Positions 32,625-57,307 of a stretch of 64,000 nucleotides of DNA are shown one piece after another. Within the stretch, counting starts at the first letter, position 1, and each line of letters starts with the position of its first letter. Position numbers and translations under genes: made by a program. The DNA comes from Promethearchaeota archaeon (GTDB taxonomy: Archaea > Asgardarchaeota > Lokiarchaeia > Sigyniarchaeales > SOKP01). The stretch lies in assembly GCA_020343655.1 (NCBI GenBank), contig CP070805.1:1742458-1806457 (forward strand). The letters run 5' to 3'. Under the pieces are notes generated by a model. The model searched no databases. It saw nothing but the letters and a program-made list of their open reading frames with translations, and was not told the DNA's origin.

Positions 32625-34616
32625 CTATTCATTCAAAAAAATATAATTATGAGCTATTTTTCTTTTATCTCTGCCTGCAAGGATATGTATATGTTTAATT
32701 GTCTTAAGTGATTCTTTGCTAAAATTATCTACTGGGATATATACTAACTCACGATTTTTTTTCCCTGCAAGTGAATAGAAATATTTGCGTGGAGGTTCTT
32801 TTGCTACATATGCTATATAGCGCTCTTTTGAATAAATGATAGCAGCTTTAAGAAGGCGTTCTGCTTTATTTTTGGTATCCCTATATTCATAATCCATATA
32901 AAAATCAAAAATTGGACGTAGAAATATGGCAGGAAATATTGAGAGTAGTCCTCCAACTTCAACATGCGTAATCCCTGGTCCAATAATATAATCTCCTGGA
33001 TTCGTTGAATAAAATGCCATATCGCTTTCTCTATCGTGTTCCGACCACCAAGTTAATTTATAAGGATATTTTTCCACCTCTCCATCATCCTTATCAAATA
33101 TTACAACAAGTGTATCGATTTTACCTTGAATTTGTTGTATGTTTTGAACATAGATCTTTTTCTTAAAAGCCCAATTCCTAATAGTTTCTTTAATTGCTAT
33201 CCCATCCATTAAGCTGGATTTAAATTCTTCGATCTTGATCCGCTGATTTTTTAAATTTTTGATAGTCTTTTTCCTTATAAAGGCAAAGTAATCCTCTTCT
33301 AAGATATCTTCAGGAGGCCAGGAAACTGTAAAATCCTTACCTTCTTCCCATTTATCCTTCCATTCTCCCGGATATTTTTCTTTAGGTCTTTCTTTTAAAG
33401 GAACTTCTTGTTCTTTTCCATAAGAATAAGGATGATGCCTGCGTAGTTTTATATAACGACCACTTGGATCAAATGCGCCTTCTGTTCTCATTTTCAATGT
33501 TTCATAATTATCACTCTCATCATCATAAGGATATTTGGTAGCTTTTTCCAAGACTTTCCATGCATAGTCATCATCAACAATATTTTTTGAAGCTATTAAC
33601 AGTTGATATAAGTTTGGCAATAATCTCTGATCTGTTAATGAGAGATTCCTTGAATATTGAAATAAAGTTTTCAATTTATGGAGATCTACAAATTCTTTAA
33701 ATTCCTCTTCATAATCATATTTTGCTTTAATTAAGATCTTATTTATTAGTTCAATTTTGTTATATGAATTTAGAATTTCATATAACTCTTCAGGCGTTTC
33801 TACGCTTTCTAATCTTTTTTTTGAAAATTTATTCCTAAAGTTCATCCATTTGTAGGTATGATATGGTAATTCTCTTAAAAGAAATCTAGCATCTGAACCT
33901 TTTATATTATAAATTTTTACATATTTGTGGGGTATTAAATCCAATTCCACATCTTCCACTTCTTGTGGATTCTCTAGATAGTATTTCACGTTATCCCAAT
34001 GTGCCATACCAATAATAAGTAAAATTCTATGATATAATGGCATCATTTTTAAAAGATGAGCCGCCATATATTTTTCTCTAAGAATATCTTTTTCTAAATA
34101 ATCATATTCATTATTAACATTTTCTTGATTTCTAAGGAAATCTTCTAAATTCACCTTATTTCTAAGTGCGTTTTTTTTATGTCGATTCTCTTTCTTAAAA
34201 TAATCCGAAATTTGTTGATAGAACTTATAAAGCCCAATTTGATTAATAGCATAATCATCAGGAAGTTTGAAACTGGGTGGTAAATATTCTGAGACTGAAA
34301 GGTCAATGAATCCAATTGGAATATTATGCTCAAGACCGATTCTTATTCCTTCCATTATGGAATCTCCAGGATCTATTGGAATAAAGTTCAATTTTTTGGG
34401 ATTTAATGTATCAGCAAATCCTATTAAAGACAAAAAAGGCAATCTTTCAACAGCCTCAATAACTTCTTCTTGTACATTATTCGGTAATTCAACGGCGATT
34501 ACATCAGGGAATACTTTAAATAACGCTATACGAACTAATTTCGCAAACTCTATTCGCGAATGGAATGTTGGAATAATGTAGATATTGCTAAATTTAATAT
34601 AGGGATTCTCATCCAT
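32625..34616 (-). CDS. large hypothetical protein with N-terminal TraB/PrgY/GumN-like domain
   Basis: N-terminal motifs IIPTFHS, PDVIAVELP, EKYMAAHLL and LLIIGMAHWDNV parallel the TraB-family GTAHVS / PDxVxVEL / ERDxxMA / VGxGHxxG motifs. The remaining roughly 430 aa are unassigned. The start overlaps the MoxR gene stop by 8 nt. Confidence 0.5.
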   Translation of the reverse strand: MDENPYIKFSNIYIIPTFHSRIEFAKLVRIALFKVFPDVIAVELPNNVQEEVIEAVERLPFLSLIGFADTLNPKKLNFIPIDPGDSIMEGIRIGLEHNIPIGFIDLSVSEYLPPSFKLPDDYAINQIGLYKFYQQISDYFKKENRHKKNALRNKVNLEDFLRNQENVNNEYDYLEKDILREKYMAAHLLKMMPLYHRILLIIGMAHWDNVKYYLENPQEVEDVELDLIPHKYVKIYNIKGSDARFLLRELPYHTYKWMNFRNKFSKKRLESVETPEELYEILNSYNKIELINKILIKAKYDYEEEFKEFVDLHKLKTLFQYSRNLSLTDQRLLPNLYQLLIASKNIVDDDYAWKVLEKATKYPYDDESDNYETLKMRTEGAFDPSGRYIKLRRHHPYSYGKEQEVPLKERPKEKYPGEWKDKWEEGKDFTVSWPPEDILEEDYFAFIRKKTIKNLKNQRIKIEEFKSSLMDGIAIKETIRNWAFKKKIYVQNIQQIQGKIDTLVVIFDKDDGEVEKYPYKLTWWSEHDRESDMAFYSTNPGDYIIGPGITHVEVGGLLSIFPAIFLRPIFDFYMDYEYRDTKNKAERLLKAAIIYSKERYIAYVAKEPPRKYFYSLAGKKNRELVYIPVDNFSKESLKTIKHIHILAGRDKRKIAHNYIFLNE

Positions 34617-35568
34617 TTGAATCTTTATCAGGCTTTTTTACAAATTCATCATAATAATCATTAACTTCTTCAATATTTTTGAATATTTTAAAAGAAATTG
34701 TTTCCTTCTGCTCTTTCAAAAATTCTTCATAATTTCCAGGTAAATACTTTAATGCAGCCTCTTCTAATACCTGAATTGAAGCATTTTCAAATGTTTTCTT
34801 TTCTAATATATCTTGGTTTTGTTTATTCATCAATCTTGATTTAATATAATATCTTATAATATTAATACCGTCTCTGACTGTATATGGCTCATCATGGACA
34901 TGAGCATTTTGAAGAAAATCTACACAATATTCTAAAATCTCTTCTGAAGCAAATGGTAAATTATACTTTAGAATTTTAAGTTCATCTACTTTATTTGGGA
35001 ATTCAATCAATATTTTGGGTTGCAAACGTGATTGAATATATTCTGGAATCTCATAAGTACTCGAATCAGCATTCATAGTAACACATAATCTGAATTCAGG
35101 ATCAGCATAAATTCTAATACCTGCTATAATACTCTCAACATAACGTCTTTTATCCATTAAAGGTGCTAGGGATGCCCAACTTTTTTCACTCATTCTATTT
35201 CCCTCATCTAAAAGACATATACCCCCCTTTACCATAGCAGATACTAAAGAACTAGCAACATAAGCAATTTTATTACCTGAAGCGATGACAGGACTGATTA
35301 GTAAATCTTCTGGGCGTGTATCCATTGTACATTGAAACATATATACATCCTTTCCCAATCTTTTTCCTGCGGCATAACCAAGTGTAGTTTTACCAACTCC
35401 TGGTTTACCAAGAATCCGAGGATTCAAAGGAAGATCATCCTTATCGACAATCATCCAAGCTGCTTTTAATTGATTAATTAAATCATCATTTCCAACCCAT
35501 TCCATGTCTACTTGAGCTGGCTCAGATAATAATAACTCTACACCTGATATTGTAACTTTCTCTAGCAT
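34609..35568 (-). CDS. MoxR-like AAA+ ATPase
   Basis: Walker A GKPGVGKTTL, Walker B ICLLDEGNR; 319 aa single AAA module. Confidence 0.8.
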   Translation of the reverse strand: MLEKVTISGVELLLSEPAQVDMEWVGNDDLINQLKAAWMIVDKDDLPLNPRILGKPGVGKTTLGYAAGKRLGKDVYMFQCTMDTRPEDLLISPVIASGNKIAYVASSLVSAMVKGGICLLDEGNRMSEKSWASLAPLMDKRRYVESIIAGIRIYADPEFRLCVTMNADSSTYEIPEYIQSRLQPKILIEFPNKVDELKILKYNLPFASEEILEYCVDFLQNAHVHDEPYTVRDGINIIRYYIKSRLMNKQNQDILEKKTFENASIQVLEEAALKYLPGNYEEFLKEQKETISFKIFKNIEEVNDYYDEFVKKPDKDSNG

Positions 35569-35702
35569 AATTTTTCATATTCTAATCTACTAATAATGGT
35601 TATAAAAGTTTACTATAATTAATTTTTCGAAATGGAGATAAAATTATTATTTGTAGCATATACATAAAAATATTTTCTATAGCTCAACTATAAAAAATAT
35701 GA

Positions 35703-35960
35703 AAATATCTTAACTATAAAAAATTAAAAAGGATTTTTAAAGCGACACAAGAATTAGCTTTTATTTTAATAGGAAATGAAATTGACCTGCAAGATACAAG
35801 AGTAGTATTTACCGAAGATGGAAGGGAGCTTGCTAAAAAAATTAATGCAAGTGATTTTTTCGAAACAAGCGCTAAATATGGGGATACAGTTGAATAGACA
35901 TTTAAGAACTTAGTAGATAGAGTTTTGGGAAATTTAGATATTGGAATTGAATTTTTTTAA
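35703..35960 (+). pseudogene. relic of a Ras/Rab-like small GTPase gene (C-terminal half, in-frame TAG at 35895-35897)
   Basis: The frame translates ...ELAFILIGNEIDLQDTRVVFTEDGRELAKKINASDFFETSAKYGDTVE*TFKNLVDRVL. It has G4-like GNEID and G5 ETSAK. The G1-G3 part is absent. Confidence 0.6.
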
Positions 35961-35992
35961 TATAAATATATAAAATAATTAATGGTGTTTGT

Positions 35993-36421
35993 TTGAGAAG
36001 TATTGAAACTAAAATTACAAGAGTAATTGTTGGAAAAATAGAACCTGATGAGGATTTAATTAACTCAATCATTGATTTAGTGAAAAAATATAACATTAAA
36101 TCGGGAATTGTTAATTGTATTGGTGCATTAAAAAAAATAACAATTGGATATTTTGATATTGAGTCTAAAGAATATTTAACTAGAACAATTGAGGAATATG
36201 TTGAATTAGTTTCATGTATAGGAAACATCACCTTCATAGATGGAAATCCAATAATTCACTTACATGCTTCCATAGGAGCAAGAGATTACAGCATAATTGG
36301 AGGACATTTAATCCAACCAACTATAGTTTCAATAACAGGAGAAATTTACATTTTGGAAGTTGATAAAAAGATAAAACGGGCTACTAATCCTCAATTTAGT
36401 TTATCATTATTAGCAATATAG
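35993..36421 (+). CDS. PPC (DUF296) domain protein
   Basis: 142 aa, TTG start. GKIEPDEDLINSI...IGALKKITIGYFD...IHLHASIG...GGHL matches the PPC/DUF296 pattern. Confidence 0.7.
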   Translation: MRSIETKITRVIVGKIEPDEDLINSIIDLVKKYNIKSGIVNCIGALKKITIGYFDIESKEYLTRTIEEYVELVSCIGNITFIDGNPIIHLHASIGARDYSIIGGHLIQPTIVSITGEIYILEVDKKIKRATNPQFSLSLLAI

Positions 36422-36438
36422 AAAATGGTTAACTTGAA

Positions 36439-36915
36439 ATGTTAGAAGTAATAGAAAGGAAATGGGCTTTAAAATTAACATTAGGAGTTGATATAACACT
36501 TAAAGATATTATTCTCAACGAAATTAAATCTGAGGTTCATCTAATTATGTGGGATATCGTAGGGCAAAATAAGTATGAATTAACATTTAGAATGTTTTTT
36601 CAAGGATCCTCTGGGGCATTACTTATCTATGATATAACACGTTATTCAACCTTTAAACAGATAACATCAAAATGGTTGGGAGATTTCAAGAATTTTGGTA
36701 GATCAGATGGAGTATATATATTGATGGGTAATAAATCAGATTTGAAAGATTCAATTATTGTAGCATATAAAGAAGGAAAAAAGTTATCTGAAGAGATAGA
36801 TGCTGTTGATTTTGGTGAGACTAGCGCAAAATATGGTGAAAATGTTGAAAAAGCATTTAGGAGTTTAGCTACTCTGGTACTGAATAAAAGCGGTACTAAA
36901 ATTAAATTAGATTAA
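36439..36915 (+). CDS. small GTPase paralog lacking the P-loop (G1)
   Basis: Begins at the switch I region (LTLGVD). G3 WDIVGQ, G4 GNKSD and G5 ETSAKYGENVEKAF are present. An in-frame TAA lies 9 nt upstream of the ATG, so no GxxxxGK[ST] can be encoded. Confidence 0.65.
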   Translation: MLEVIERKWALKLTLGVDITLKDIILNEIKSEVHLIMWDIVGQNKYELTFRMFFQGSSGALLIYDITRYSTFKQITSKWLGDFKNFGRSDGVYILMGNKSDLKDSIIVAYKEGKKLSEEIDAVDFGETSAKYGENVEKAFRSLATLVLNKSGTKIKLD

Positions 36916-36962
36916 AAAAATATTACATAATTTTAAAAATTAGGTTATAAAGATTAACAGAA

Positions 36963-37523
36963 ATGATTGGAGATTATAAAGGATTTGTAAAAAATAAGGT
37001 TGTCGTAGCGCTTCTCCAAGCATATCAGGATACACTTGATTATGATGGGATGAAATCAATCCTAAGAGAAGCAGAGATGTTATATTTAAAGGATATAGGA
37101 GAAGAAGATCCTAATAATACATTAGATTTCTTTTATTTTAAGAAAATCATTTCTGCTCAAAATTGTTTATTATACGATTCTTCCGATCTTCTTTATGAAA
37201 TTGGAAAGAAATTCTCGTTCTATTTATTCCCGTTTGGGAAAAGTTTTAAAGAAAAAATTTATGAAATTAATTCTTCTATTATTACAGATTGGAAAGTTAA
37301 TATAATAGAAAATAACGAAAATGAAATAATTCTTCAAGTACACAGGTGCATCTTCTGTTCGGAGATCGGAGTCCCTTGCACTTTATTTAAAGGATTCTTA
37401 GTTCATTCATTACAAAAATCATTACCTTCAGGACATAGGATTATTTATGAAAGGGATAAAGAAGATGTATATGATCTAAATCATAATAGTTATATTGCAA
37501 AATTGAAAATTGAAAAGTATTAA
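36963..37523 (+). CDS. V4R-like domain protein
   Basis: 186 aa. C-terminal Cys-containing segment HRCIFCSEIGVPCTLFKGFLVHSL resembles the V4R (4-vinyl reductase) core. Confidence 0.5.
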   Translation: MIGDYKGFVKNKVVVALLQAYQDTLDYDGMKSILREAEMLYLKDIGEEDPNNTLDFFYFKKIISAQNCLLYDSSDLLYEIGKKFSFYLFPFGKSFKEKIYEINSSIITDWKVNIIENNENEIILQVHRCIFCSEIGVPCTLFKGFLVHSLQKSLPSGHRIIYERDKEDVYDLNHNSYIAKLKIEKY

Positions 37524-37607
37524 ATACTTATATTATCGAAAATTATATTGTAAGTTATTGATGAAGAAATCCTTATAAATACTTACAACAAAATATTAAA
37601 TTGCATA

Positions 37608-38162
37608 ATGACAATAGAAGATGCTAAAGATTTGCGAGAATTCGTTTTTAAAATAACAATTCTTGGAGATGCAGCGGTAGGCAAAACTTCATTAATAAAC
37701 CAATTTGTAGAAGGTTCATTTCAAGAAGATTACAAACCTACATTGGGTGCTAATATTGTCCGAAAAGATGTAAATTTCGATAATACAAGAGTTAGATTAA
37801 TCATGTGGGATTTAGCGGGCCAAGAGAAATATCGAGTGGTTCGTAGTATGTACTTTCAGGGGTGTGAAGGAGCTCTACTTGTCTATGATGTTACTCGATA
37901 TCATACCTTAGAGAGTATAAATTCTAAGTGGTTAAGAGACTTTAAGAAACATGTAAAAAAGAAAGGGGCGTATATATTAATTGGTAACAAAATTGATTTA
38001 AAAGATCAGAGAGTAATACCTACAGAGAGAGGAAAAGAATTAGCCGCAAAAATCAAAGCTAGTCATTTTATTGAAACGAGTGCAAAGCTCGGAGAAAATA
38101 TCGAAGAAGCTTTTTCTCTTCTTGTGAATCAAATTTTAAGTAATCATGGAGTAGATATTTAA
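37608..38162 (+). CDS. Ras/Rab-like small GTPase
   Basis: G1 GDAAVGKTS, switch I PTLG, G3 WDLAGQE, G4 GNKIDL, G5 ETSAKLGENIEEAF. Confidence 0.88.
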   Translation: MTIEDAKDLREFVFKITILGDAAVGKTSLINQFVEGSFQEDYKPTLGANIVRKDVNFDNTRVRLIMWDLAGQEKYRVVRSMYFQGCEGALLVYDVTRYHTLESINSKWLRDFKKHVKKKGAYILIGNKIDLKDQRVIPTERGKELAAKIKASHFIETSAKLGENIEEAFSLLVNQILSNHGVDI

Positions 38163-38250
38163 AAAGTTTTAATAACCTCAAAAAACTCTTTTTTGTATCT
38201 GTCTATTAACGAGAAGATTTTATTAAAAAATTAAATCAAGAGAATCAATT

Positions 38251-39402
38251 ATGAAAGAAACCTCTCATAAAGTTTCTAAAGCCCCAAAATCAGCTATTAG
38301 AGAATTGTTTGATCTTGCTTTAAGTCGTTCAGATGTTATTAGTCTCGGGATTGGGCAACCAGATTTTACAACACCCGAACCAGCGATACAAGGAAATATA
38401 AATGCATTGAAAAAAAATATTACTATGTATGCTCCAACTAGAGGAGTTCCAGAGTTATTAGAATTAGTAGAGAAAAAAATAAACAAAATTAATAATATCA
38501 AAGCCAATTGGAAAGATAATATTATTATTACTAATGGAGGTAGTCAGGCTATTACTTTAGCTTTTGCTTCAATATTTAACCCCGGAGATGAAATGATTAT
38601 TTGTTCACCAAATTTTGTTTCCTACTTTTACTGCGCTTTATTTTTTGGTGTTAAAGTAATAGAGGTTGAACGAAATAAAGATTTTAGTCTTAATATTGAA
38701 AAAATAAGAAATTCAGTTACAATTAAAACTAAAGCAATGCTGATCAATACTCCAAATAATCCTACTGGTCATGCTCTAAGTCTAACAGAGTTAAAAGAAA
38801 TTGTAGATATTATCATCAAAAATGATTTGTATTTAATCACAGATGAAGTTTATGAAAATTACATTTACGATGGATTAATACATATAAGTCCTGCTTCTCT
38901 AAATGGTATGTTTGAAAGAACTATTACCGTGAATGCAATGTCAAAATTATTCTCAGCTACTGGTTTTAGATTAGGTTATGTTGTTGCTTCAAAAGAAATT
39001 ATAGATTTAATGGAGAAATATCACCAATATACCGTGGCAGGAACTAATCATCCTGCCCAGTATGGCTTTATTGAAGCGTTAAAAATGGGAACTGATTTTT
39101 TTAAGGAAATTTGGGAGAGTTTTGATAAAAGACGAAATTTTGTGTATAATAGATTAAACGAGATTGGATTTGACATAATAAAACCACGGGGAGCATTTTA
39201 CATAATGCCCTCAACTGAAAAATTCAATTTGAGCGGGACAAAATTCTCAAGAGATATTATGAAAGAAAAAGCTGTAGCAATTGTACCAGGAGGAATTTTT
39301 GGATCCTTTTCACATTATATGATACGAATATCTTACGCTACAGAAATGAAGAAACTTAGTGAAGCCATGGAGAGAATTGAGAAATTTGTACAAAATTTAT
39401 AA
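38251..39402 (+). CDS. class I/II pyridoxal-phosphate aminotransferase (aspartate aminotransferase-like)
   Basis: TPNNPTGHAL, and PLP-lysine region NAMSKLFSATGFRLGY; 383 aa. Confidence 0.85.
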   Translation: MKETSHKVSKAPKSAIRELFDLALSRSDVISLGIGQPDFTTPEPAIQGNINALKKNITMYAPTRGVPELLELVEKKINKINNIKANWKDNIIITNGGSQAITLAFASIFNPGDEMIICSPNFVSYFYCALFFGVKVIEVERNKDFSLNIEKIRNSVTIKTKAMLINTPNNPTGHALSLTELKEIVDIIIKNDLYLITDEVYENYIYDGLIHISPASLNGMFERTITVNAMSKLFSATGFRLGYVVASKEIIDLMEKYHQYTVAGTNHPAQYGFIEALKMGTDFFKEIWESFDKRRNFVYNRLNEIGFDIIKPRGAFYIMPSTEKFNLSGTKFSRDIMKEKAVAIVPGGIFGSFSHYMIRISYATEMKKLSEAMERIEKFVQNL

Positions 39403-39458: not shown

Positions 39459-41768
<2,310 letters not shown>

Positions 41769-41851
41769 TCAAATTATAACTATCTACATATCACATGTGA
41801 ATAAAGTAATGATGGTTTATTTTCTTTTTCTTTAATTTTTATAATTGTTTG

Positions 41852-42661
41852 TTATAAGTGCTTTTGAGAAATTTCAATGTTTAAACGTTCTTCTAAAAAC
41901 TTTTTAAATGATTCTAAAATTTCTTTTTGTCTTAGTGCTTTGTTCTTATTTTGTTTCACAAAGATTTTTCTTAATTTTATAATCTTTTTCTTTAAGTTGA
42001 TATGATGAGCGTTAAGTAAGAGTTTTCCAACATAAATTCTTGTGGTTTTGTCTAGAGATTCATTATCCACATTCGAAAATTGATCTACAATTGTACTTCT
42101 TAATTCACGCCTTAAAACATCCATTTTCTCTATAATACTATCTAATAGATCATCAATTACTCCATTTAGATCCGATATTTGTGAGAGATCATATGTAGCT
42201 TCCGCAAAATCCCAATTATATTTATTGAATTTATCAAATTTTTCATTAATTTTGTCAATTACTGTGCTTGGAATAGGTTCCCCTCGATTTTTATTCCACT
42301 TCATACAGATTTCAATAGGTGTTGCTATATGAACTATAAAAAAGCTTAAATTTAGAGTGTTAGCGATCTCTCTTAAATCATGCCTCATACTAGAATAGTA
42401 GTTTAAATCATCACTAATCACAATATTTCCTTTTTCTAACTCCTCTCTTATTATTTTCAGATTTCTAAGTCTAACCAAATGTTCTTTTTCATGAATAAAT
42501 TTATCTGGAGTTATTATCTGTCTAATTATATCTGGATCAATAATTTTAACATCCAGATTATTAAACCTTCTCTTGAGAGCAATTTTTAATGTATTTGCAA
42601 ATGTGCTTTTACCAGAAGCAGGTAATCCTACTAAACAAACTAAAAAATTTTGGTTGGTCAA
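41852..42661 (-). CDS. pstK: O-phosphoseryl-tRNA(Sec) kinase / KTI12-family P-loop kinase
   Basis: P-loop GLPASGKSTF. DDLNYYSSMRHDL and RGEPIP...KFD...KYNWD closely parallel archaeal PSTK as I recall it. The paralogous KTI12 assignment cannot be excluded. Confidence 0.65.
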   Translation of the reverse strand: MTNQNFLVCLVGLPASGKSTFANTLKIALKRRFNNLDVKIIDPDIIRQIITPDKFIHEKEHLVRLRNLKIIREELEKGNIVISDDLNYYSSMRHDLREIANTLNLSFFIVHIATPIEICMKWNKNRGEPIPSTVIDKINEKFDKFNKYNWDFAEATYDLSQISDLNGVIDDLLDSIIEKMDVLRRELRSTIVDQFSNVDNESLDKTTRIYVGKLLLNAHHINLKKKIIKLRKIFVKQNKNKALRQKEILESFKKFLEERLNIEISQKHL

Positions 42662-42673
42662 GAATCAATTCAT

Positions 42674-42949
42674 CTAATTTGCTTTAATATTTATAGTCTT
42701 TATTAGTTCTCTCTTCTGTTGCTTAGAAAAAGATTTTATTTGCAATTCTCTTCTCATTGCCTCCTTTCTATTTTGAAATGTTTCAAAATATTTTAACTCT
42801 ATATGTTTTCTCCCACGACAAAATTTAGCCCCTGTTCCACACCGGTGTTCATGCCATCTCCTATAGAGATTGCTGGTGTATCCTGTGTAATAACTTTTTC
42901 TTCCAGTCTTCGCAATAACCTCTAAAATATATACATAGAATACAACCAT
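42674..42949 (-). CDS. GIY-YIG domain small nuclease-like protein (UPF0213-like)
   Basis: YVYILE...YYTGYTSNLYRRWHEH...; 91 aa. Confidence 0.75.
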   Translation of the reverse strand: MVVFYVYILEVIAKTGRKSYYTGYTSNLYRRWHEHRCGTGAKFCRGRKHIELKYFETFQNRKEAMRRELQIKSFSKQQKRELIKTINIKAN

Positions 42950-44698: not shown

Positions 44699-45382
44699 TT
44701 AAATAAAGGTAATATCTTGATATTCAGAATCTCCAATATCTTTTTTAGCTACACCTAAATCTCTAACTTGTTGATTTAATTTCAAAACAGCCTCCCTTAC
44801 AATTTCTTTTTGTTTTGCACCAGTGCAAACTATGCGTCCTGTGCTGAATATTAGAAAAACTGTCTTAGGATCTTGCATTCTATAAATAAGTCCAGGGAAC
44901 ACTTCTGGTTCATACATGGCATATTCCATCACGATTGCAGCCATGTTTAAGTCAATGTTGGTATGAAGATCACCCGAAGCTACGATATTTTGAATCGTAA
45001 TTTCTGGATTGGATAATTTTATTCCTGCTTTTCTAATGTTTTTTACTACCTTATCTACAACCCGTTCTGCTTCTGCTGCTTGTCTAAGACCTGTAACAAC
45101 CATTTTTCCAGTTGAAAAAATTAAAATAGTAGCACGTGGCTTTTCAATTCGCATTACGAGACCAGGGAACCGTTCTGGATTATACTCTACCTCTGCATGT
45201 CGTCTTGCTATTTGATTTAAATCAATTTTTTCTGTAATCTCTACTGTTACTGTTGCGACTACGTTTTCGATTTTATAATCTAAATCAGTTTCATAATCAT
45301 ATTCTCCTTCTTCCCCTTCTTCTCCTTCCTCCTCTTCTTCTTCAAGTTCGTCATATTCGTCTTCAAATTCTTCTTCTGACAT
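44699..45382 (-). CDS. tbp: TATA-box binding protein with about 37-aa acidic N-terminal extension
   Basis: Two TBP repeats (IENVVATV...FPGLVMRI...ILIFSTGKMVVTG and IQNIVASGDL...FPGLIYRM...FLIFSTGRIVCTGAK), preceded by MSEEEFEDEYDELEEEEEEGEEGEEGEYDYETD. Confidence 0.92.
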   Translation of the reverse strand: MSEEEFEDEYDELEEEEEEGEEGEEGEYDYETDLDYKIENVVATVTVEITEKIDLNQIARRHAEVEYNPERFPGLVMRIEKPRATILIFSTGKMVVTGLRQAAEAERVVDKVVKNIRKAGIKLSNPEITIQNIVASGDLHTNIDLNMAAIVMEYAMYEPEVFPGLIYRMQDPKTVFLIFSTGRIVCTGAKQKEIVREAVLKLNQQVRDLGVAKKDIGDSEYQDITFI

Positions 45383-45615: not shown

Positions 45616-46143
45616 CTAAATACTTGAAATCTGATCTAGAATTCTTTTCGTTAATTCTATAAATGCCTCTTCAACATTTTGGCCAGTTTTAGCTGATGTA
45701 ATAATCAATCCCATATTATGTGCATTTGAGTATTCAATTGCTTCATTTTTAGTTATTTTTATTTGGTTTTCTAGATCAGATTTATTCCCAATTAGTATTA
45801 TAGGAGCATCATCTCTTGCATCTTTAAAACTTTGGACCCAATCATCAAGTTTTTCAAAAGTTTTAATTTTAGTTGTATCGTAAACTAATAAAGCTCCATT
45901 AGCACCCTCAAGATAGAGTCTTCTTAATGATTTAAACGATTCTTGTCCTCCGAGATCCCATATTTGAGCAGAAACTTCACCATAGCCTGATATATTCATA
46001 TCCTTCTTTAGAAGGTTAACTCCTAATGTTGATTTGTAATTTTCTCTAAATTTGTTTTCGATCCATCTATAAACCAAAGATGTTTTACCTACATTTGCCT
46101 CTCCAAGAAGTACTATTTTAATAATATATGTTGGTTCGCTCAT
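45616..46143 (-). CDS. Ras/Rab-like small GTPase
   Basis: G1 GEANVGKTS, G3 WDLGGQE, G4 GNKSDL, G5 TSAKTGQNVEEAF. Confidence 0.88.
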   Translation of the reverse strand: MSEPTYIIKIVLLGEANVGKTSLVYRWIENKFRENYKSTLGVNLLKKDMNISGYGEVSAQIWDLGGQESFKSLRRLYLEGANGALLVYDTTKIKTFEKLDDWVQSFKDARDDAPIILIGNKSDLENQIKITKNEAIEYSNAHNMGLIITSAKTGQNVEEAFIELTKRILDQISSI

Positions 46144-46292
46144 TGTTAATCATACAATATAAAACATACAATTTTATTTTATATTCTAAGTATAGTTTAT
46201 AATTATTAATAATTTTCTAATAACACTTCAAAATTAAAAATTAACCTTTTAATTAAGTAAAAAAATTACTAATGAAAAAATTGTAATGATTA

Positions 46293-46772
46293 TTAGTCTT
46301 TTTGGAATACGAGCATAAATTCACAATAATTCTGCCCTGTTTGTAGACTACATCCAAGTTCTTGAGCAAAACAATGACGATCACTTAATTTTTCTACAAC
46401 TCCTGCTAATAATCCAGCTTCAAATGAACAAAAGCTTCCTGATGTTTTAATTCCTTTTTTTATTAAATCTTTTATAGAAGAATGATCTTTTAGTTTTAAT
46501 TGTAATATTTCTTCTGTACTTTCAGTTATTTCAGCTGAACCAAGATTAAATTCAGCAATAATTCGTTTTAATTCATCTGGAATTTGAGATATATCTTTAA
46601 CTGGTTTAATTTTTAAGATAGTTCCTAGTTCATGTCCTAAATAGTAAAAAATCGCTTCTAGTTGGTGACCTAGAGCTAATAGAGCCCCAACTTTCATATC
46701 TCCTATAGATTTGCCATCTTTTAAATTCTTTCTCATCTGAGCTAGAATTTTGGAGAGTAATTGTCTATCCAT
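46293..46772 (-). CDS. V4R domain protein
   Basis: 159 aa. C-terminal SGSFCSFEAGLLAGVVEKLSDRHCFAQELGCSLQTGQNYCEFMLVF fits the V4R Cys pattern. Confidence 0.65.
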   Translation of the reverse strand: MDRQLLSKILAQMRKNLKDGKSIGDMKVGALLALGHQLEAIFYYLGHELGTILKIKPVKDISQIPDELKRIIAEFNLGSAEITESTEEILQLKLKDHSSIKDLIKKGIKTSGSFCSFEAGLLAGVVEKLSDRHCFAQELGCSLQTGQNYCEFMLVFQKD

Positions 46773-46827
46773 TAATTTTCACTTTATTTTTATTTTTTTA
46801 TAAATTTTATTTATCTTTATTTAAAAA

Positions 46828-47127
46828 TTATATTTTAACTGAAGATATAAACGCATAAAGAATCGCATCTATAATTTCTTCTTCTTGTATATTTAGAGAA
46901 AGTCTTTTATCTGCTATAATTAAAGTGGGAACTGAAGTGATACGATACTCTTGTGTAAACTGACGATTATCTTCCAAGTCAATCGAAATTTTTTCTATTC
47001 TCAATTTTTTTCCGAACAGGGATATATTTATTCTTTTTAACATATCTTCTACTGGTTTGCAAGGTGCACAATGATTTGAAGAGAAAAATAAAATTTTGGG
47101 ATATCCTTGATTGATATCATCATACAT
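46828..47127 (-). CDS. thioredoxin-like protein
   Basis: 99 aa. CAPC active-site-like motif after a beta strand (ILFFSSNHCAPCKP) and a cis-Pro-like SVPTLII. Confidence 0.6.
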   Translation of the reverse strand: MYDDINQGYPKILFFSSNHCAPCKPVEDMLKRINISLFGKKLRIEKISIDLEDNRQFTQEYRITSVPTLIIADKRLSLNIQEEEIIDAILYAFISSVKI

Positions 47128-47130
47128 TTT

Positions 47131-47670
47131 CTATTCTTCTTTATATTTGTAGTATAATTCTTTTATAATTGCTTGGAATGCTTCATACACTCCACTTCCT
47201 GTCTTCGCACTTGTCTTATAATATCCAAGGAAACCTCTATCTTCAACTATTTCTTTTACCATTTCATCATCTAAATCTTTTTCATCAACCAAATCAGTTT
47301 TATTACCAAACAAAACAATCGGTAGATCTCCTGTGTATTTTTTAATATCTTCATGCCATTCCTCTATATGATTAAAGCTATCATCATCAGTATGCGAAAA
47401 AACTATAATTGCTGCCTTACTACCCTTATAGAAGGTAGGACGCATGAAATCGAATTCTCGTTGACCAGCAATATCCCAAAAAAATAATTTGCAATTATCT
47501 CCCTCAATTTCTTCATCATATTTCGAAAACTGGGCCCCTAACGTCTTAATATAATCCTTCTGAAAACTACCTTGAGTATATTTTTTAATTAAGGAAGTTT
47601 TCCCTACTGCCCCATCACCAATTACAGTTATTTTAAATACGAATCCTTTAGTAACATCATCCTTTCCCAT
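47131..47670 (-). CDS. Ras/Rab-like small GTPase
   Basis: G1 GDGAVGKTS, G3 WDIAGQREF, G4 GNKTDL, G5 TSAKTGSGVYEAF. Confidence 0.88.
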   Translation of the reverse strand: MGKDDVTKGFVFKITVIGDGAVGKTSLIKKYTQGSFQKDYIKTLGAQFSKYDEEIEGDNCKLFFWDIAGQREFDFMRPTFYKGSKAAIIVFSHTDDDSFNHIEEWHEDIKKYTGDLPIVLFGNKTDLVDEKDLDDEMVKEIVEDRGFLGYYKTSAKTGSGVYEAFQAIIKELYYKYKEE

Positions 47671-47820: not shown

Positions 47821-48267
47821 ATGGTTCAAGATCCAAACAATATGATGTTTTGTGAAAGTTGTAGGATGAATGTTTATCCAACAAGACAGAGATTTAATAT
47901 TAAAATATTTGGAATTTTTGCTATTCTTATGCTGAGTTTATTTATCTCAATTACTATCGTTTCTTTCTCAATTTTTTCAGAAATTTTTCTAATTATTTTT
48001 ATCATGTGGGGATTTATGATACTCAATCCATATCTTTTATATTACGGATTACAGAAAAAGCAACATTGTCCGAGATGCCTTAAAAGAACTGTTGAGAAGA
48101 ACTTAGAATATAAACCTTTTGGAGTTAAAGAACCAGAAATTTATAAAATTTTAGCCCCTAGTAAAACATCTTTAATAATCTGGCACTGTCCATATTGTGG
48201 TACTCCATTAAGTGAACGAGCAAAATTTTGCAGGTCATGTGGGAAAAAATTTGAAATTCAAAGGTAA
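47821..48267 (+). CDS. membrane protein with N- and C-terminal zinc ribbons
   Basis: CESC at the N-terminus, two TM helices, then CPRC...CPYC...CRSC. Confidence 0.5.
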   Translation: MVQDPNNMMFCESCRMNVYPTRQRFNIKIFGIFAILMLSLFISITIVSFSIFSEIFLIIFIMWGFMILNPYLLYYGLQKKQHCPRCLKRTVEKNLEYKPFGVKEPEIYKILAPSKTSLIIWHCPYCGTPLSERAKFCRSCGKKFEIQR

Positions 48268-56108: not shown

Positions 56109-56498
56109 GTGCATAAAAACGTGAAAGAGAGAAGGTTTATCAATCAGATAGGTATAGGATCTGACCAACATGGGCATAATGATGATTGCACTAATGCTGC
56201 TATTAAAGCAGTTAAAAATGCCATATCAAATAACTGTTTATGTGGTCTTTCAGAGATTTGTGAATTAAGAGAACCCAAGGATCTAGCAAAAATGAAAGTT
56301 CATGTGAAAATTGGTGCGCCATATCCTGAAAATATTGATGAGAAGAAAGTATTAAAGGCAATACCTTTTGGTGAAAAAACTATTGAAGTAGTAAAAGGAG
56401 GATTAATTGCTCAGGGGATTATGATTAAGGAATTGGGAGATACATCGGATAAAATTATCGTATGTAATGCTGCTGTAACGGTATTTGTTTCAAATTAG
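56109..56498 (+). CDS. Lin0512-family-like small conserved protein
   Basis: IGIGSDQHGHNDDCTNAAIKAVKNAISNN resembles the Lin0512_fam N-terminal pattern. GTG start is from the ORF track. Confidence 0.4.
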   Translation: MHKNVKERRFINQIGIGSDQHGHNDDCTNAAIKAVKNAISNNCLCGLSEICELREPKDLAKMKVHVKIGAPYPENIDEKKVLKAIPFGEKTIEVVKGGLIAQGIMIKELGDTSDKIIVCNAAVTVFVSN

Positions 56499-56776: not shown

Positions 56777-57307
56777 TTGTATGATGCAACATATAAAATT
56801 GTGATTTTCGGAGATGCTGGTTGTGGCAAAACAACTTTAACTCAGAGATTTTTAACTAATTTATTTAAGTCAGATTCTAAAATGACTATTGGTGTTGATT
56901 TCGAAGTAAAAAGTCTGGAAATCAATGGAAAAAAAATAAAACTTCAAATTTGGGATTTTGGTGGGGAAGAACGATTTAGATTTTTATTACCAACATATGT
57001 TAGAGGAGCTAATGGAGCCCTTTTTATGTATGATGTTACGAATTATAGTTCACTTGCTCATATAGATGATTGGCTTATGGTGATTAGAAAAGAACTTAGA
57101 GCTGAAGATCAATTTCCTATTATTGTTGTCGGAGGAAAGGCAGATCTTGTAAACGATCGTGAAGTTACAGGAGATGAAGGTATTAATATTGCAAAGTCAA
57201 GAGCAGTAAATGGTTTTATTGAATGTAGTTCGAAAACTGGTGAGAATGTTGAAGAGACTTTTGAAGCTTTATCACGGTTAATGATGCAAAAGTCTAATTT
57301 ACTTTGA
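56777..57307 (+). CDS. Ras/Rab-like small GTPase
   Basis: G1 GDAGCGKTT, G3 WDFGGEERF, G4 variant GGKADL, G5 CSSKTGENVEETF; TTG start. Confidence 0.85.
   Translation: MYDATYKIVIFGDAGCGKTTLTQRFLTNLFKSDSKMTIGVDFEVKSLEINGKKIKLQIWDFGGEERFRFLLPTYVRGANGALFMYDVTNYSSLAHIDDWLMVIRKELRAEDQFPIIVVGGKADLVNDREVTGDEGINIAKSRAVNGFIECSSKTGENVEETFEALSRLMMQKSNLL

Follow-up and report, generated by a model that had tools for sequence, protein, structure and literature searches.

The 64,000-nucleotide stretch of Promethearchaeota archaeon DNA analysed here (contig CP070805.1, positions 1,742,458 to 1,806,457; hereafter the window; G+C content around 29%) carries two loci in which genes for small GTPases accompany a gene for a protein of the V4R superfamily. 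In locus A, five elements follow one another on the + strand: the remnant of a GTPase gene (the G1 relic, 35747-35960), a gene for a PPC/DUF296 protein (35993-36421), a GTPase gene with an internal deletion (G2-delta, 36439-36915), a V4R-superfamily gene (V4RL, 36963-37523) and an intact Rab-like GTPase gene (G3, 37608-38162). An earlier note, made from the letters of the DNA alone, had described these five elements as a regulator/GTPase cassette, and the open reading frame listing confirmed that each of them is real and lies where that note had placed it. Comparison with related genomes indicates that the conserved unit is two genes, V4RL followed by G3. A tblastn search of the window with G3 turned up six GTPase genes, remnants included, five of which lie within locus A or locus B (45616-47670, - strand); together with the widely conserved adjacency described below, this argues that the association of V4R and GTPase genes is not due to chance.

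V4RL is a stand-alone protein of 186 residues, whose membership of the V4R superfamily emerges from its modelled fold and from the profile of its family. Searched alone, its sequence gave no match to the Pfam V4R family (PF02830) at E <= 0.1 and nothing useful in an NCBIfam scan. The AlphaFold2 (AF2) model, computed with 32 homologs, had a predicted local distance difference test (pLDDT) score of 91.5 and a predicted template modelling (pTM) score of 0.89, and begins with five helices, after which comes a sheet of four strands interrupted by one helix. When this model was compared with the PDB using Foldseek, H-NOX proteins ranked first (E around 1e-5, template modelling (TM) score 0.53-0.64) and YslB/DUF2507 second. 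TRAPPC3/Bet3 chains were matched with E values of 5e-3 to 0.2, TM scores of 0.40-0.49, a root-mean-square deviation (rmsd) of 5-10 Å and a probability of 0.97-1.0; the V4R protein MJ1460 (2oso) was matched with a probability of 0.99 and a TM score of 0.43-0.49, and AxCeSD was also found. These are the same folds that Tran et al. (2024) give as relatives of Thor-TRAPPC3 (PMC10933270). The modelled fold is therefore of the H-NOX/V4R/Bet3 type, in keeping with what had been anticipated for this gene.

At the sequence level, a profile of the close family (A1) had no match among PDB sequences; it reached P0265 at E 3.4e-10, and P0265 scores 45 bits against PF02830 (cut-off 31). A profile comprising V4RL and its distant relatives (A5, 39 members) matched MJ1460 (2osd) at E 8.9e-5, and 13 of these 39 members have Pfam V4R (PF02830) matches of their own, the best at E 1.3e-17. 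From the last two observations we conclude that V4RL is a divergent V4R-superfamily protein. Its previous label of "V4R-like" is thus upheld by the structure model and the family profile, though not by a Pfam V4R hit of the protein itself. Neither V4RL nor the family profiles matched Pfam TRAPP or any TRAPPC3 chain in the PDB, 7YH1-3 included. Weak HNOB matches were seen in only two of the 39 A5 members (E 0.0047). No haem-ligating His is found among the A1 invariant residues in the equivalent helix of V4RL (95-105), and positions 129-135 read CIFCSEI, differing from the YxSxR motif of H-NOX; lacking both features, V4RL is not a haem H-NOX protein. All sequences of the Loki-type family (alignment A1) have C68, C129, C132, C139 and H174, and V4RL probably carries a Cys4 site of the zinc type, by analogy with Thor-TRAPPC3, which binds Zn through four Cys residues, and with PoxR, whose Zn site is also Cys-based (PMC10933270). 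In the wider family the invariant positions are D28, G29, S32, L69, E79, G81, F84, P90 and G92.

The partner gene, G3, encodes a complete small GTPase of 184 residues, as previously described: it covers Ras profile positions 1-161 (E 2.8e-52) and has all five G motifs (GDAAVGKT, PTLG, DLAGQ, NKID and TSAK). Among PDB sequences it is most similar to Rab11A/B and to a Rab of Thorarchaeota, 7EZB (E around 4e-37). The C-terminus (...SNHGVDI) has no Cys for prenylation, so that "Rab-like" is used here for similarity only and does not denote a Rab sensu stricto.

The conservation of this pair was assessed by scanning one genome per species, which yielded 80 related loci with V4RL proteins 61-86% identical to that of the window. 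A co-directional G3 ortholog directly follows V4RL in all 80, with a median spacer of around 96 nucleotides. With the distant loci described below included, spacers range from -14 to 251 nucleotides, and the two genes are on the same strand throughout. What lies upstream of V4RL is variable. Among 68 scoreable loci, the arrangement was GTPase-PPC-GTPase in 19, PPC-GTPase in 12, PPC only in 10, GTPase-PPC in 2 and neither gene in 25, the PPC gene being present in 43 and absent from 25. The closest relatives have the order G1, PPC, G2, V4RL, G3, aminotransferase gene, with G1 and G2 at full length. The proposal that all five genes form a conserved cassette is therefore not sustained: G1, the PPC gene and G2 are variably present accessories. 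Among the close relatives synteny covers a long block, with CDC48, the aminotransferase gene and, around 13 genes away, locus B, and in several genomes the locus tags place V4RL and V4R2, the V4R gene of locus B, around 12-16 genes apart. Metagenome-assembled genomes (MAGs) of the JBHL* series (L002, L007, L023-L025 and others), labelled as Hod-, Thor-, Odin- or Hermodarchaeota, have V4RL proteins 72-81% identical and the same synteny; their taxon labels look unreliable and were left unused.

More distant relatives were obtained by searching the V4RL family profile against 1.84 billion representative proteins, which showed the family to be narrow, with 29 representatives, around 15 of them distant and full-length. 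When these distant relatives were used as queries in turn, proteins annotated as "V4R domain-containing" came up, among them some from Helarchaeota and Sigynarchaeum. The distant relatives share around 25-35% identity with V4RL (profile E 1e-9 to 1e-24). In all ten for which downstream sequence was available, a Ras-like GTPase gene lies immediately after the V4R homolog on the same strand; L084, whose contig stops at the V4R gene, was left out of this count. The two genes are separated by 1 nucleotide in Helarchaeota (L169/170), 2 in L085/86, 12 in L174, 20 in Sigynarchaeum (L172/173, near LeuRS) and in L175/176, 30 in L171, 47 in L087, where GTPase genes stand on both sides, and 245 in L083, in a CDC48 context; in L088, beside the rpS13 operon, they overlap by 14 nucleotides. 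Their surroundings are otherwise unrelated (CDC48/KTI12, the rpS13 operon, LeuRS, sugar epimerases), and none of them contains the aminotransferase gene. The GTPases beside the distant V4R homologs all match G3 above every other paralog of the window. We conclude that selection keeps the V4R gene and the G3-type GTPase gene together, in this order, and does not keep the remainder of locus A. The linkage of V4R and GTPase genes had been claimed to be non-random, and the adjacency is indeed kept in related genomes, in 80 of 80 close and 10 of 10 distant loci whose contexts differ. In L087 (4405-6184), the upstream GTPase flanking the V4R homolog has ADVASQ in place of DxxGQ, a degenerate switch II.

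In the window, V4RL and G3 are separated by a spacer of 84 nucleotides (37524-37607, + strand) that contains no run of five or more T and has a TATA-like element, TTATAAAT, at 37573-37580. Downstream of G3, a run of six T (38189-38194, + strand) is a candidate archaeal terminator before the aminotransferase gene (38251-39402). Counts over the related loci, which are indicative only, showed a run of at least five T in 58 of 76 spacers between G3 and the aminotransferase gene (76%) versus 30 of 78 spacers between V4RL and G3 (38%), the two kinds of spacer being of similar lengths; TATA-like motifs were seen ahead of the aminotransferase gene in 50 of 76 loci and ahead of G3 in 18 of 78. Judged by these signals, V4RL and G3 are probably co-transcribed, with a putative transcript end at the oligo-T before the aminotransferase gene and possibly an internal promoter. 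The aminotransferase gene, conserved in 76 or more of the close loci, was considered as a third member of the operon and rejected: it is absent beside all the distant pairs, and oligo-T and TATA-like signals precede it.

Locus B is a parallel module made of different paralogs, namely a GTPase, a thioredoxin and an MsvR-like V4R protein. On the - strand, a gene for a Rab-like GTPase of 179 residues (47131-47670; Ras, E 7e-45) is followed after 3 nucleotides by a gene for a thioredoxin-fold protein of 99 residues with a CxxC motif (46828-47127; Pfam Thioredoxin_2 and Thioredoxin), then by V4R2 (46293-46772) and by a second Rab-like GTPase gene (45616-46143; 175 residues; Ras, E 2.3e-47). The earlier note had read this region as a second GTPase-V4R-GTPase locus; such a locus exists and is conserved, but the thioredoxin gene separates the upstream GTPase from the V4R gene. 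V4R2 is a canonical V4R/TRAPPC3-like protein of 159 residues that scores 24 bits against Pfam V4R and also matches DUF2507, both below the cut-off. It matches the C-terminal region of NCBIfam MsvR, which is the V4R domain, at E 2.2e-9, and MJ1460 weakly by sequence. Its AF2 model (pLDDT 80) gave as top Foldseek matches the V4R protein MJ1460, YslB, Bet3, MopR/PoxR and Thor-TRAPPC3 (7yh3). Residues C114, C133, C140 and C149 are invariant. The V4R cysteines of MsvR are redox-sensitive, mediate redox-dependent DNA binding and are re-reduced by the thioredoxin system (PMC3729527, PMC7278568); given the match to MsvR, thiol control of V4R2 is a reasonable inference. When V4RL and V4R2 were compared by BLASTP and hhalign, only an FCS motif common to both could be aligned; the two are therefore not recent duplicates.

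Among 82 related loci, the order GTPase-thioredoxin-V4R2 is found, co-directional, wherever the contig extends upstream, with gaps of 3 and around 50 nucleotides. The downstream GTPase is co-directional after V4R2 only in the closer clade (V4R2 at least 80% identical), whereas the farther clade has it within an inverted [GTPase-TBP] segment. This inverted segment stands beside V4R2 in L125-L168, and some genomes of that clade have two tandem TBP copies. The TBP gene of the window (44699-45382, - strand) encodes an acidic N-terminal tail of around 40 residues. On the other side of locus B, the + strand gene at 47821-48267 encodes a predicted membrane protein of 148 residues with C-terminal zinc ribbons and a zf-LITAF-like match that scores exactly the Pfam threshold of 23.8 bits. 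The gene lies divergently next to that of the locus B GTPase, and its position is kept in related loci.

The evidence supports a functional coupling of V4RL and the Rab-like GTPase G3. As the most economical mechanism, V4RL would serve as a stand-alone sensor or regulator domain for the GTPase whose gene comes next, a proposal to which we give even chances. It would make direct contact with G3, probably in dimeric form, and would couple an input to the nucleotide state or the output of G3. That input might come from a small hydrophobic ligand, or from the cysteines of V4RL through their redox or metal state. Such a mechanism would be modelled, by analogy, on the stand-alone H-NOX sensors that act on neighbour-encoded enzymes and on MglB acting on MglA. 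The thioredoxin of locus B points to thiol or redox control of the V4R2 cysteines, and the PPC gene and the tandem G1 and G2 genes are lineage-specific additions around the V4RL-G3 core. Several observations weigh against this proposal. Conservation of the Cys4 motif does not extend to the wider V4RL family, which rules out Zn or redox sensing as a mechanism common to all such pairs. The region is wholly syntenic among close relatives, and the 80 loci are for this reason weak evidence when taken alone. The TATA-like TTATAAAT, around 30 nucleotides before the ATG of G3, implies that G3 may have its own promoter. Finally, in MK-D1 the GTPase genes are generally not in operons with roadblock (RB), longin or TRAPPC3 genes (Tran et al. 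2024; PMC10933270).

A different relation between the same two proteins was proposed in the earlier note, in which the V4R protein belongs with the TRAPP guanine-nucleotide exchange factor (GEF); in its explicit form, V4RL would be a Bet3/TRAPPC3-like GEF subunit for the adjacent Rab-like GTPase and the pair a forerunner of TRAPP and its Rab. The TRAPPC3/Bet3 fold matches of V4RL with their high Foldseek probability, the fold matches of V4R2 to Bet3 and to Thor-TRAPPC3 and the conserved V4R-GTPase pairing all agree with it, as do the closest solved relatives of G3, Rab11/Ypt31/32 and Rab1/8, which include TRAPP substrates, and the contact that the Bet3 C-terminus makes with the Rab nucleotide pocket in TRAPP (PMC10152722). 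However, the Rab-binding surface of TRAPP is formed mainly by the longins Trs23/Bet5, with Trs31 also needed, and a Pfam scan found no longin or roadblock gene in locus A or locus B. The model of V4RL is also nearer to H-NOX than to Bet3, its sequence links lead only to prokaryotic V4R proteins, and without a C-terminal prenylation Cys in G3 no Rab-type membrane cycle is evident. We found no specific support for the TRAPP/GEF interpretation and regard it as improbable. The direction of control might instead be reversed, with G3 as the upstream switch and V4RL as a carrier of small molecules or lipids whose localisation or ligand release is set by G3-GTP. V4R/TRAPPC3 folds hold hydrophobic cavities, occupied by palmitate in TRAPPC3 and by phenols in PoxR, and ligand binding or transport was proposed for the Asgard proteins by Tran et al. 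(PMC10933270); the conserved pairing fits such an effector or cargo role equally. Against this, neither V4RL nor G3 shows a membrane-targeting feature, the V4R-first gene order is uninformative on direction, and the evidence available here is the same as for a sensor; this arrangement strikes us as unlikely.

The two genes might, lastly, act independently and owe their adjacency to inherited synteny in a genome rich in GTPases. The 80 close loci do share a long block with the aminotransferase gene, CDC48 and locus B, Asgard genomes are rich in small GTPases, a TATA-like motif precedes G3 in the window, and most genes for eukaryotic signature proteins (ESPs) in Asgard archaea lie outside conserved neighbourhoods (Liu et al., bioRxiv 10.1101/2020.10.19.343400). 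What makes this explanation very improbable is that the pair survives entirely different flanks in all ten distant relatives, mostly with gaps of 1-50 nucleotides or an overlap, that the partner GTPase is always of the same ortholog type, and that an independent V4R paralog, V4R2, is also tied to a GTPase. On a longer time scale, one could speculate that the link between a V4R/Bet3 fold and a Rab-like GTPase predates eukaryotes, that a ligand- or redox-gated switch of Lokiarchaeia was the seed of the Bet3-Rab relation in TRAPP, and that the decayed copies in locus A show the birth and death of paralogs, a scenario we hold to be doubtful at best.

The sensor/regulator reading may be set against systems already described. 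With MglA/MglB the V4RL-G3 pair shares a single-domain Ras-superfamily GTPase beside the gene of a small dimeric alpha/beta regulator, in a conserved two-gene arrangement; the partner here has a V4R/H-NOX-type fold, whereas MglB is of the Roadblock/LC7 type. Bacterial stand-alone H-NOX proteins are the best structural matches to V4RL, are likewise around 185 residues long and are encoded beside a partner gene, but the partner of V4RL is a GTPase and not a kinase or cyclase, and V4RL lacks the haem His and YxSxR. The core of TRAPP, in which Bet3/TRAPPC3 works with Rab1/Ypt1 and Rab11/Ypt32, resembles the pair in the Bet3 fold class and the Rab-like partner, which Bet3 touches in TRAPP; it differs in that V4RL-G3 comes without longins and without sequence similarity, V4RL being nearer to H-NOX and G3 lacking the prenylation Cys. 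Thor-TRAPPC3 and the TRAPPC3-like and PoxR-like proteins of MK-D1 are also stand-alone Asgard proteins with a V4R/TRAPPC3 fold and Cys-based Zn sites, although V4RL matches no 7YH chain by sequence, nor is any among its best 50 fold matches. The Asgard operon encoding LAMTOR1-like, Rab-like and DENN proteins offers another conserved neighbourhood in which a Rab-like GTPase is accompanied by candidate regulators with eukaryote-like folds, but the partner proteins are others. For V4R2 the comparison is with MsvR, whose V4R domain it matches with similar Cys spacing, in a gene right after that of a thioredoxin; unlike MsvR, V4R2 has no DNA-binding domain, and its neighbours are GTPases.

That V4R gave rise to Bet3 was proposed by Podar et al. 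(2008), without discussion of GTPases (PMC2253512). Liu et al. describe the LAMTOR1-like/Rab-like/DENN operon and do not mention V4R (bioRxiv 10.1101/2020.10.19.343400). Tran et al. (2024) solved Thor-TRAPPC3 (PDB 7YH1-3), modelled two V4R/TRAPPC3-like proteins of MK-D1 and found it difficult to pair GTPases with regulators by genome layout (PMC10933270). We found no report of a conserved pair of V4R and Rab-like GTPase genes in the searchable literature, which did not cover Klinger et al. 2016. With a V4R-fold gene whose neighbour is always a Rab-like GTPase gene of one ortholog group, there is a concrete candidate for a one-to-one match of regulator and GTPase. Asgard archaea have dozens of Rab-, Arf- and Rag-like GTPases, and we know of few cases in which their regulators have been matched to them. 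The pair also opens the descent of Bet3 from V4R to experiment, since contact between a prokaryotic V4R protein and a Rab-like GTPase could be looked for directly, and the thioredoxin-containing locus B suggests a testable input, the thiol or zinc redox state.

The two remaining GTPase elements of locus A, G1 and G2, are lineage-specific tandem duplicates that are both being lost in this genome. The nearest related locus, L001, served as the reference for protein and DNA alignments. At the G1 position, a retained promoter/5' region (35641-35746, + strand) is 85% identical in nucleotides to L001 97-202, which directly precedes the start codon of L001 G1 (L001 204). It is followed by the relic itself (35747-35960, + strand), a pseudogene holding the last 70 or so codons of a Rab-like GTPase with the G4 and G5 regions (L001 551-794, 80% nucleotide identity). 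The intervening 348 nucleotides (L001 203-550), and with them the start codon and 116 codons, are gone. Frame 3 of 35721-35957 matches Ras profile positions 97-160 (E 4.5e-13), and the encoded protein is 76% identical to residues 117-183 of L001 G1; the reading frame is interrupted once, by a TAG (35895-35897), and the NKxD motif has become NEID through a K-to-E change.

G2-delta (36439-36915, + strand) was known to lack a P-loop, and in agreement with this it covers Ras profile positions 29-160 only. The idea that it starts at switch I proved wrong: alignment with the L001 ortholog of 186 residues placed the loss of 84 nucleotides inside the gene, in frame, with the junction at 36480/36481, and the normal start and first 14 codons (MLEVIERKWALKLT) are intact. 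The missing 28 codons encode TVLGDQAVGKTSLIKKYVTGTFDQNYHP, that is, the P-loop (GDxAVGKT), helix 1 and the start of switch I; motifs G3, G4 and G5 are kept as DIVGQ, NKSD and TSAK. L001, which still has this segment, carries a copy of the direct repeat TTAGGAG at either end of it, the signature of a deletion by slippage. At the G2 position in other genomes, all 35 GTPases are of 179-193 residues and have a P-loop, from which it follows that the P-loop-less G2 is a private deletion and represents no conserved pseudoGTPase family; the latter possibility was rejected, the truncated form being found in no other genome. G2-delta is thus not a paralog designed without a P-loop: in this genome both G1 and G2 are deletion derivatives. 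The ratio of nonsynonymous to synonymous substitution rates (dN/dS) of G2-delta versus L001 is 0.16, not above that of intact G2 pairs (0.13-0.20), and with dS near saturation this says only that the deletion is not old. The value would fit both a very recent deletion and residual function, and relaxed selection is not indicated. The clean deletions of G1 and G2 illustrate turnover in the large GTPase families of Asgard archaea.

The PPC/DUF296 protein (142 residues, 35993-36421, + strand; Pfam PCC, PF03479, E 7.5e-31) is usually encoded between two GTPase paralogs, with gaps of 10-40 nucleotides, in the window and in related loci, and may be another GTPase-associated protein of this clade. 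Upstream of the cluster, on the - strand, the interval 32625-35568 contains a gene for a protein of 663 residues with a faint TraB-family match and a gene for a MoxR-like AAA_5 ATPase, which overlap by 8 nucleotides; this gene pair is kept upstream of the cluster in many relatives. On the other side, the interval 39459-42949 contains CDC48, a KTI12-like kinase gene (41852-42661) and a gene for a GIY-YIG protein (42674-42949). These three genes are found near the V4R-GTPase pair even in the distant loci L083-L085, with changes of order and orientation. A fourth intact small GTPase gene of the window (56777-57307, + strand) has a TTG start and no V4R gene nearby; its neighbours encode a Lin0512_fam protein (56109-56498) and a protein of 312 residues with a faint winged-helix match.

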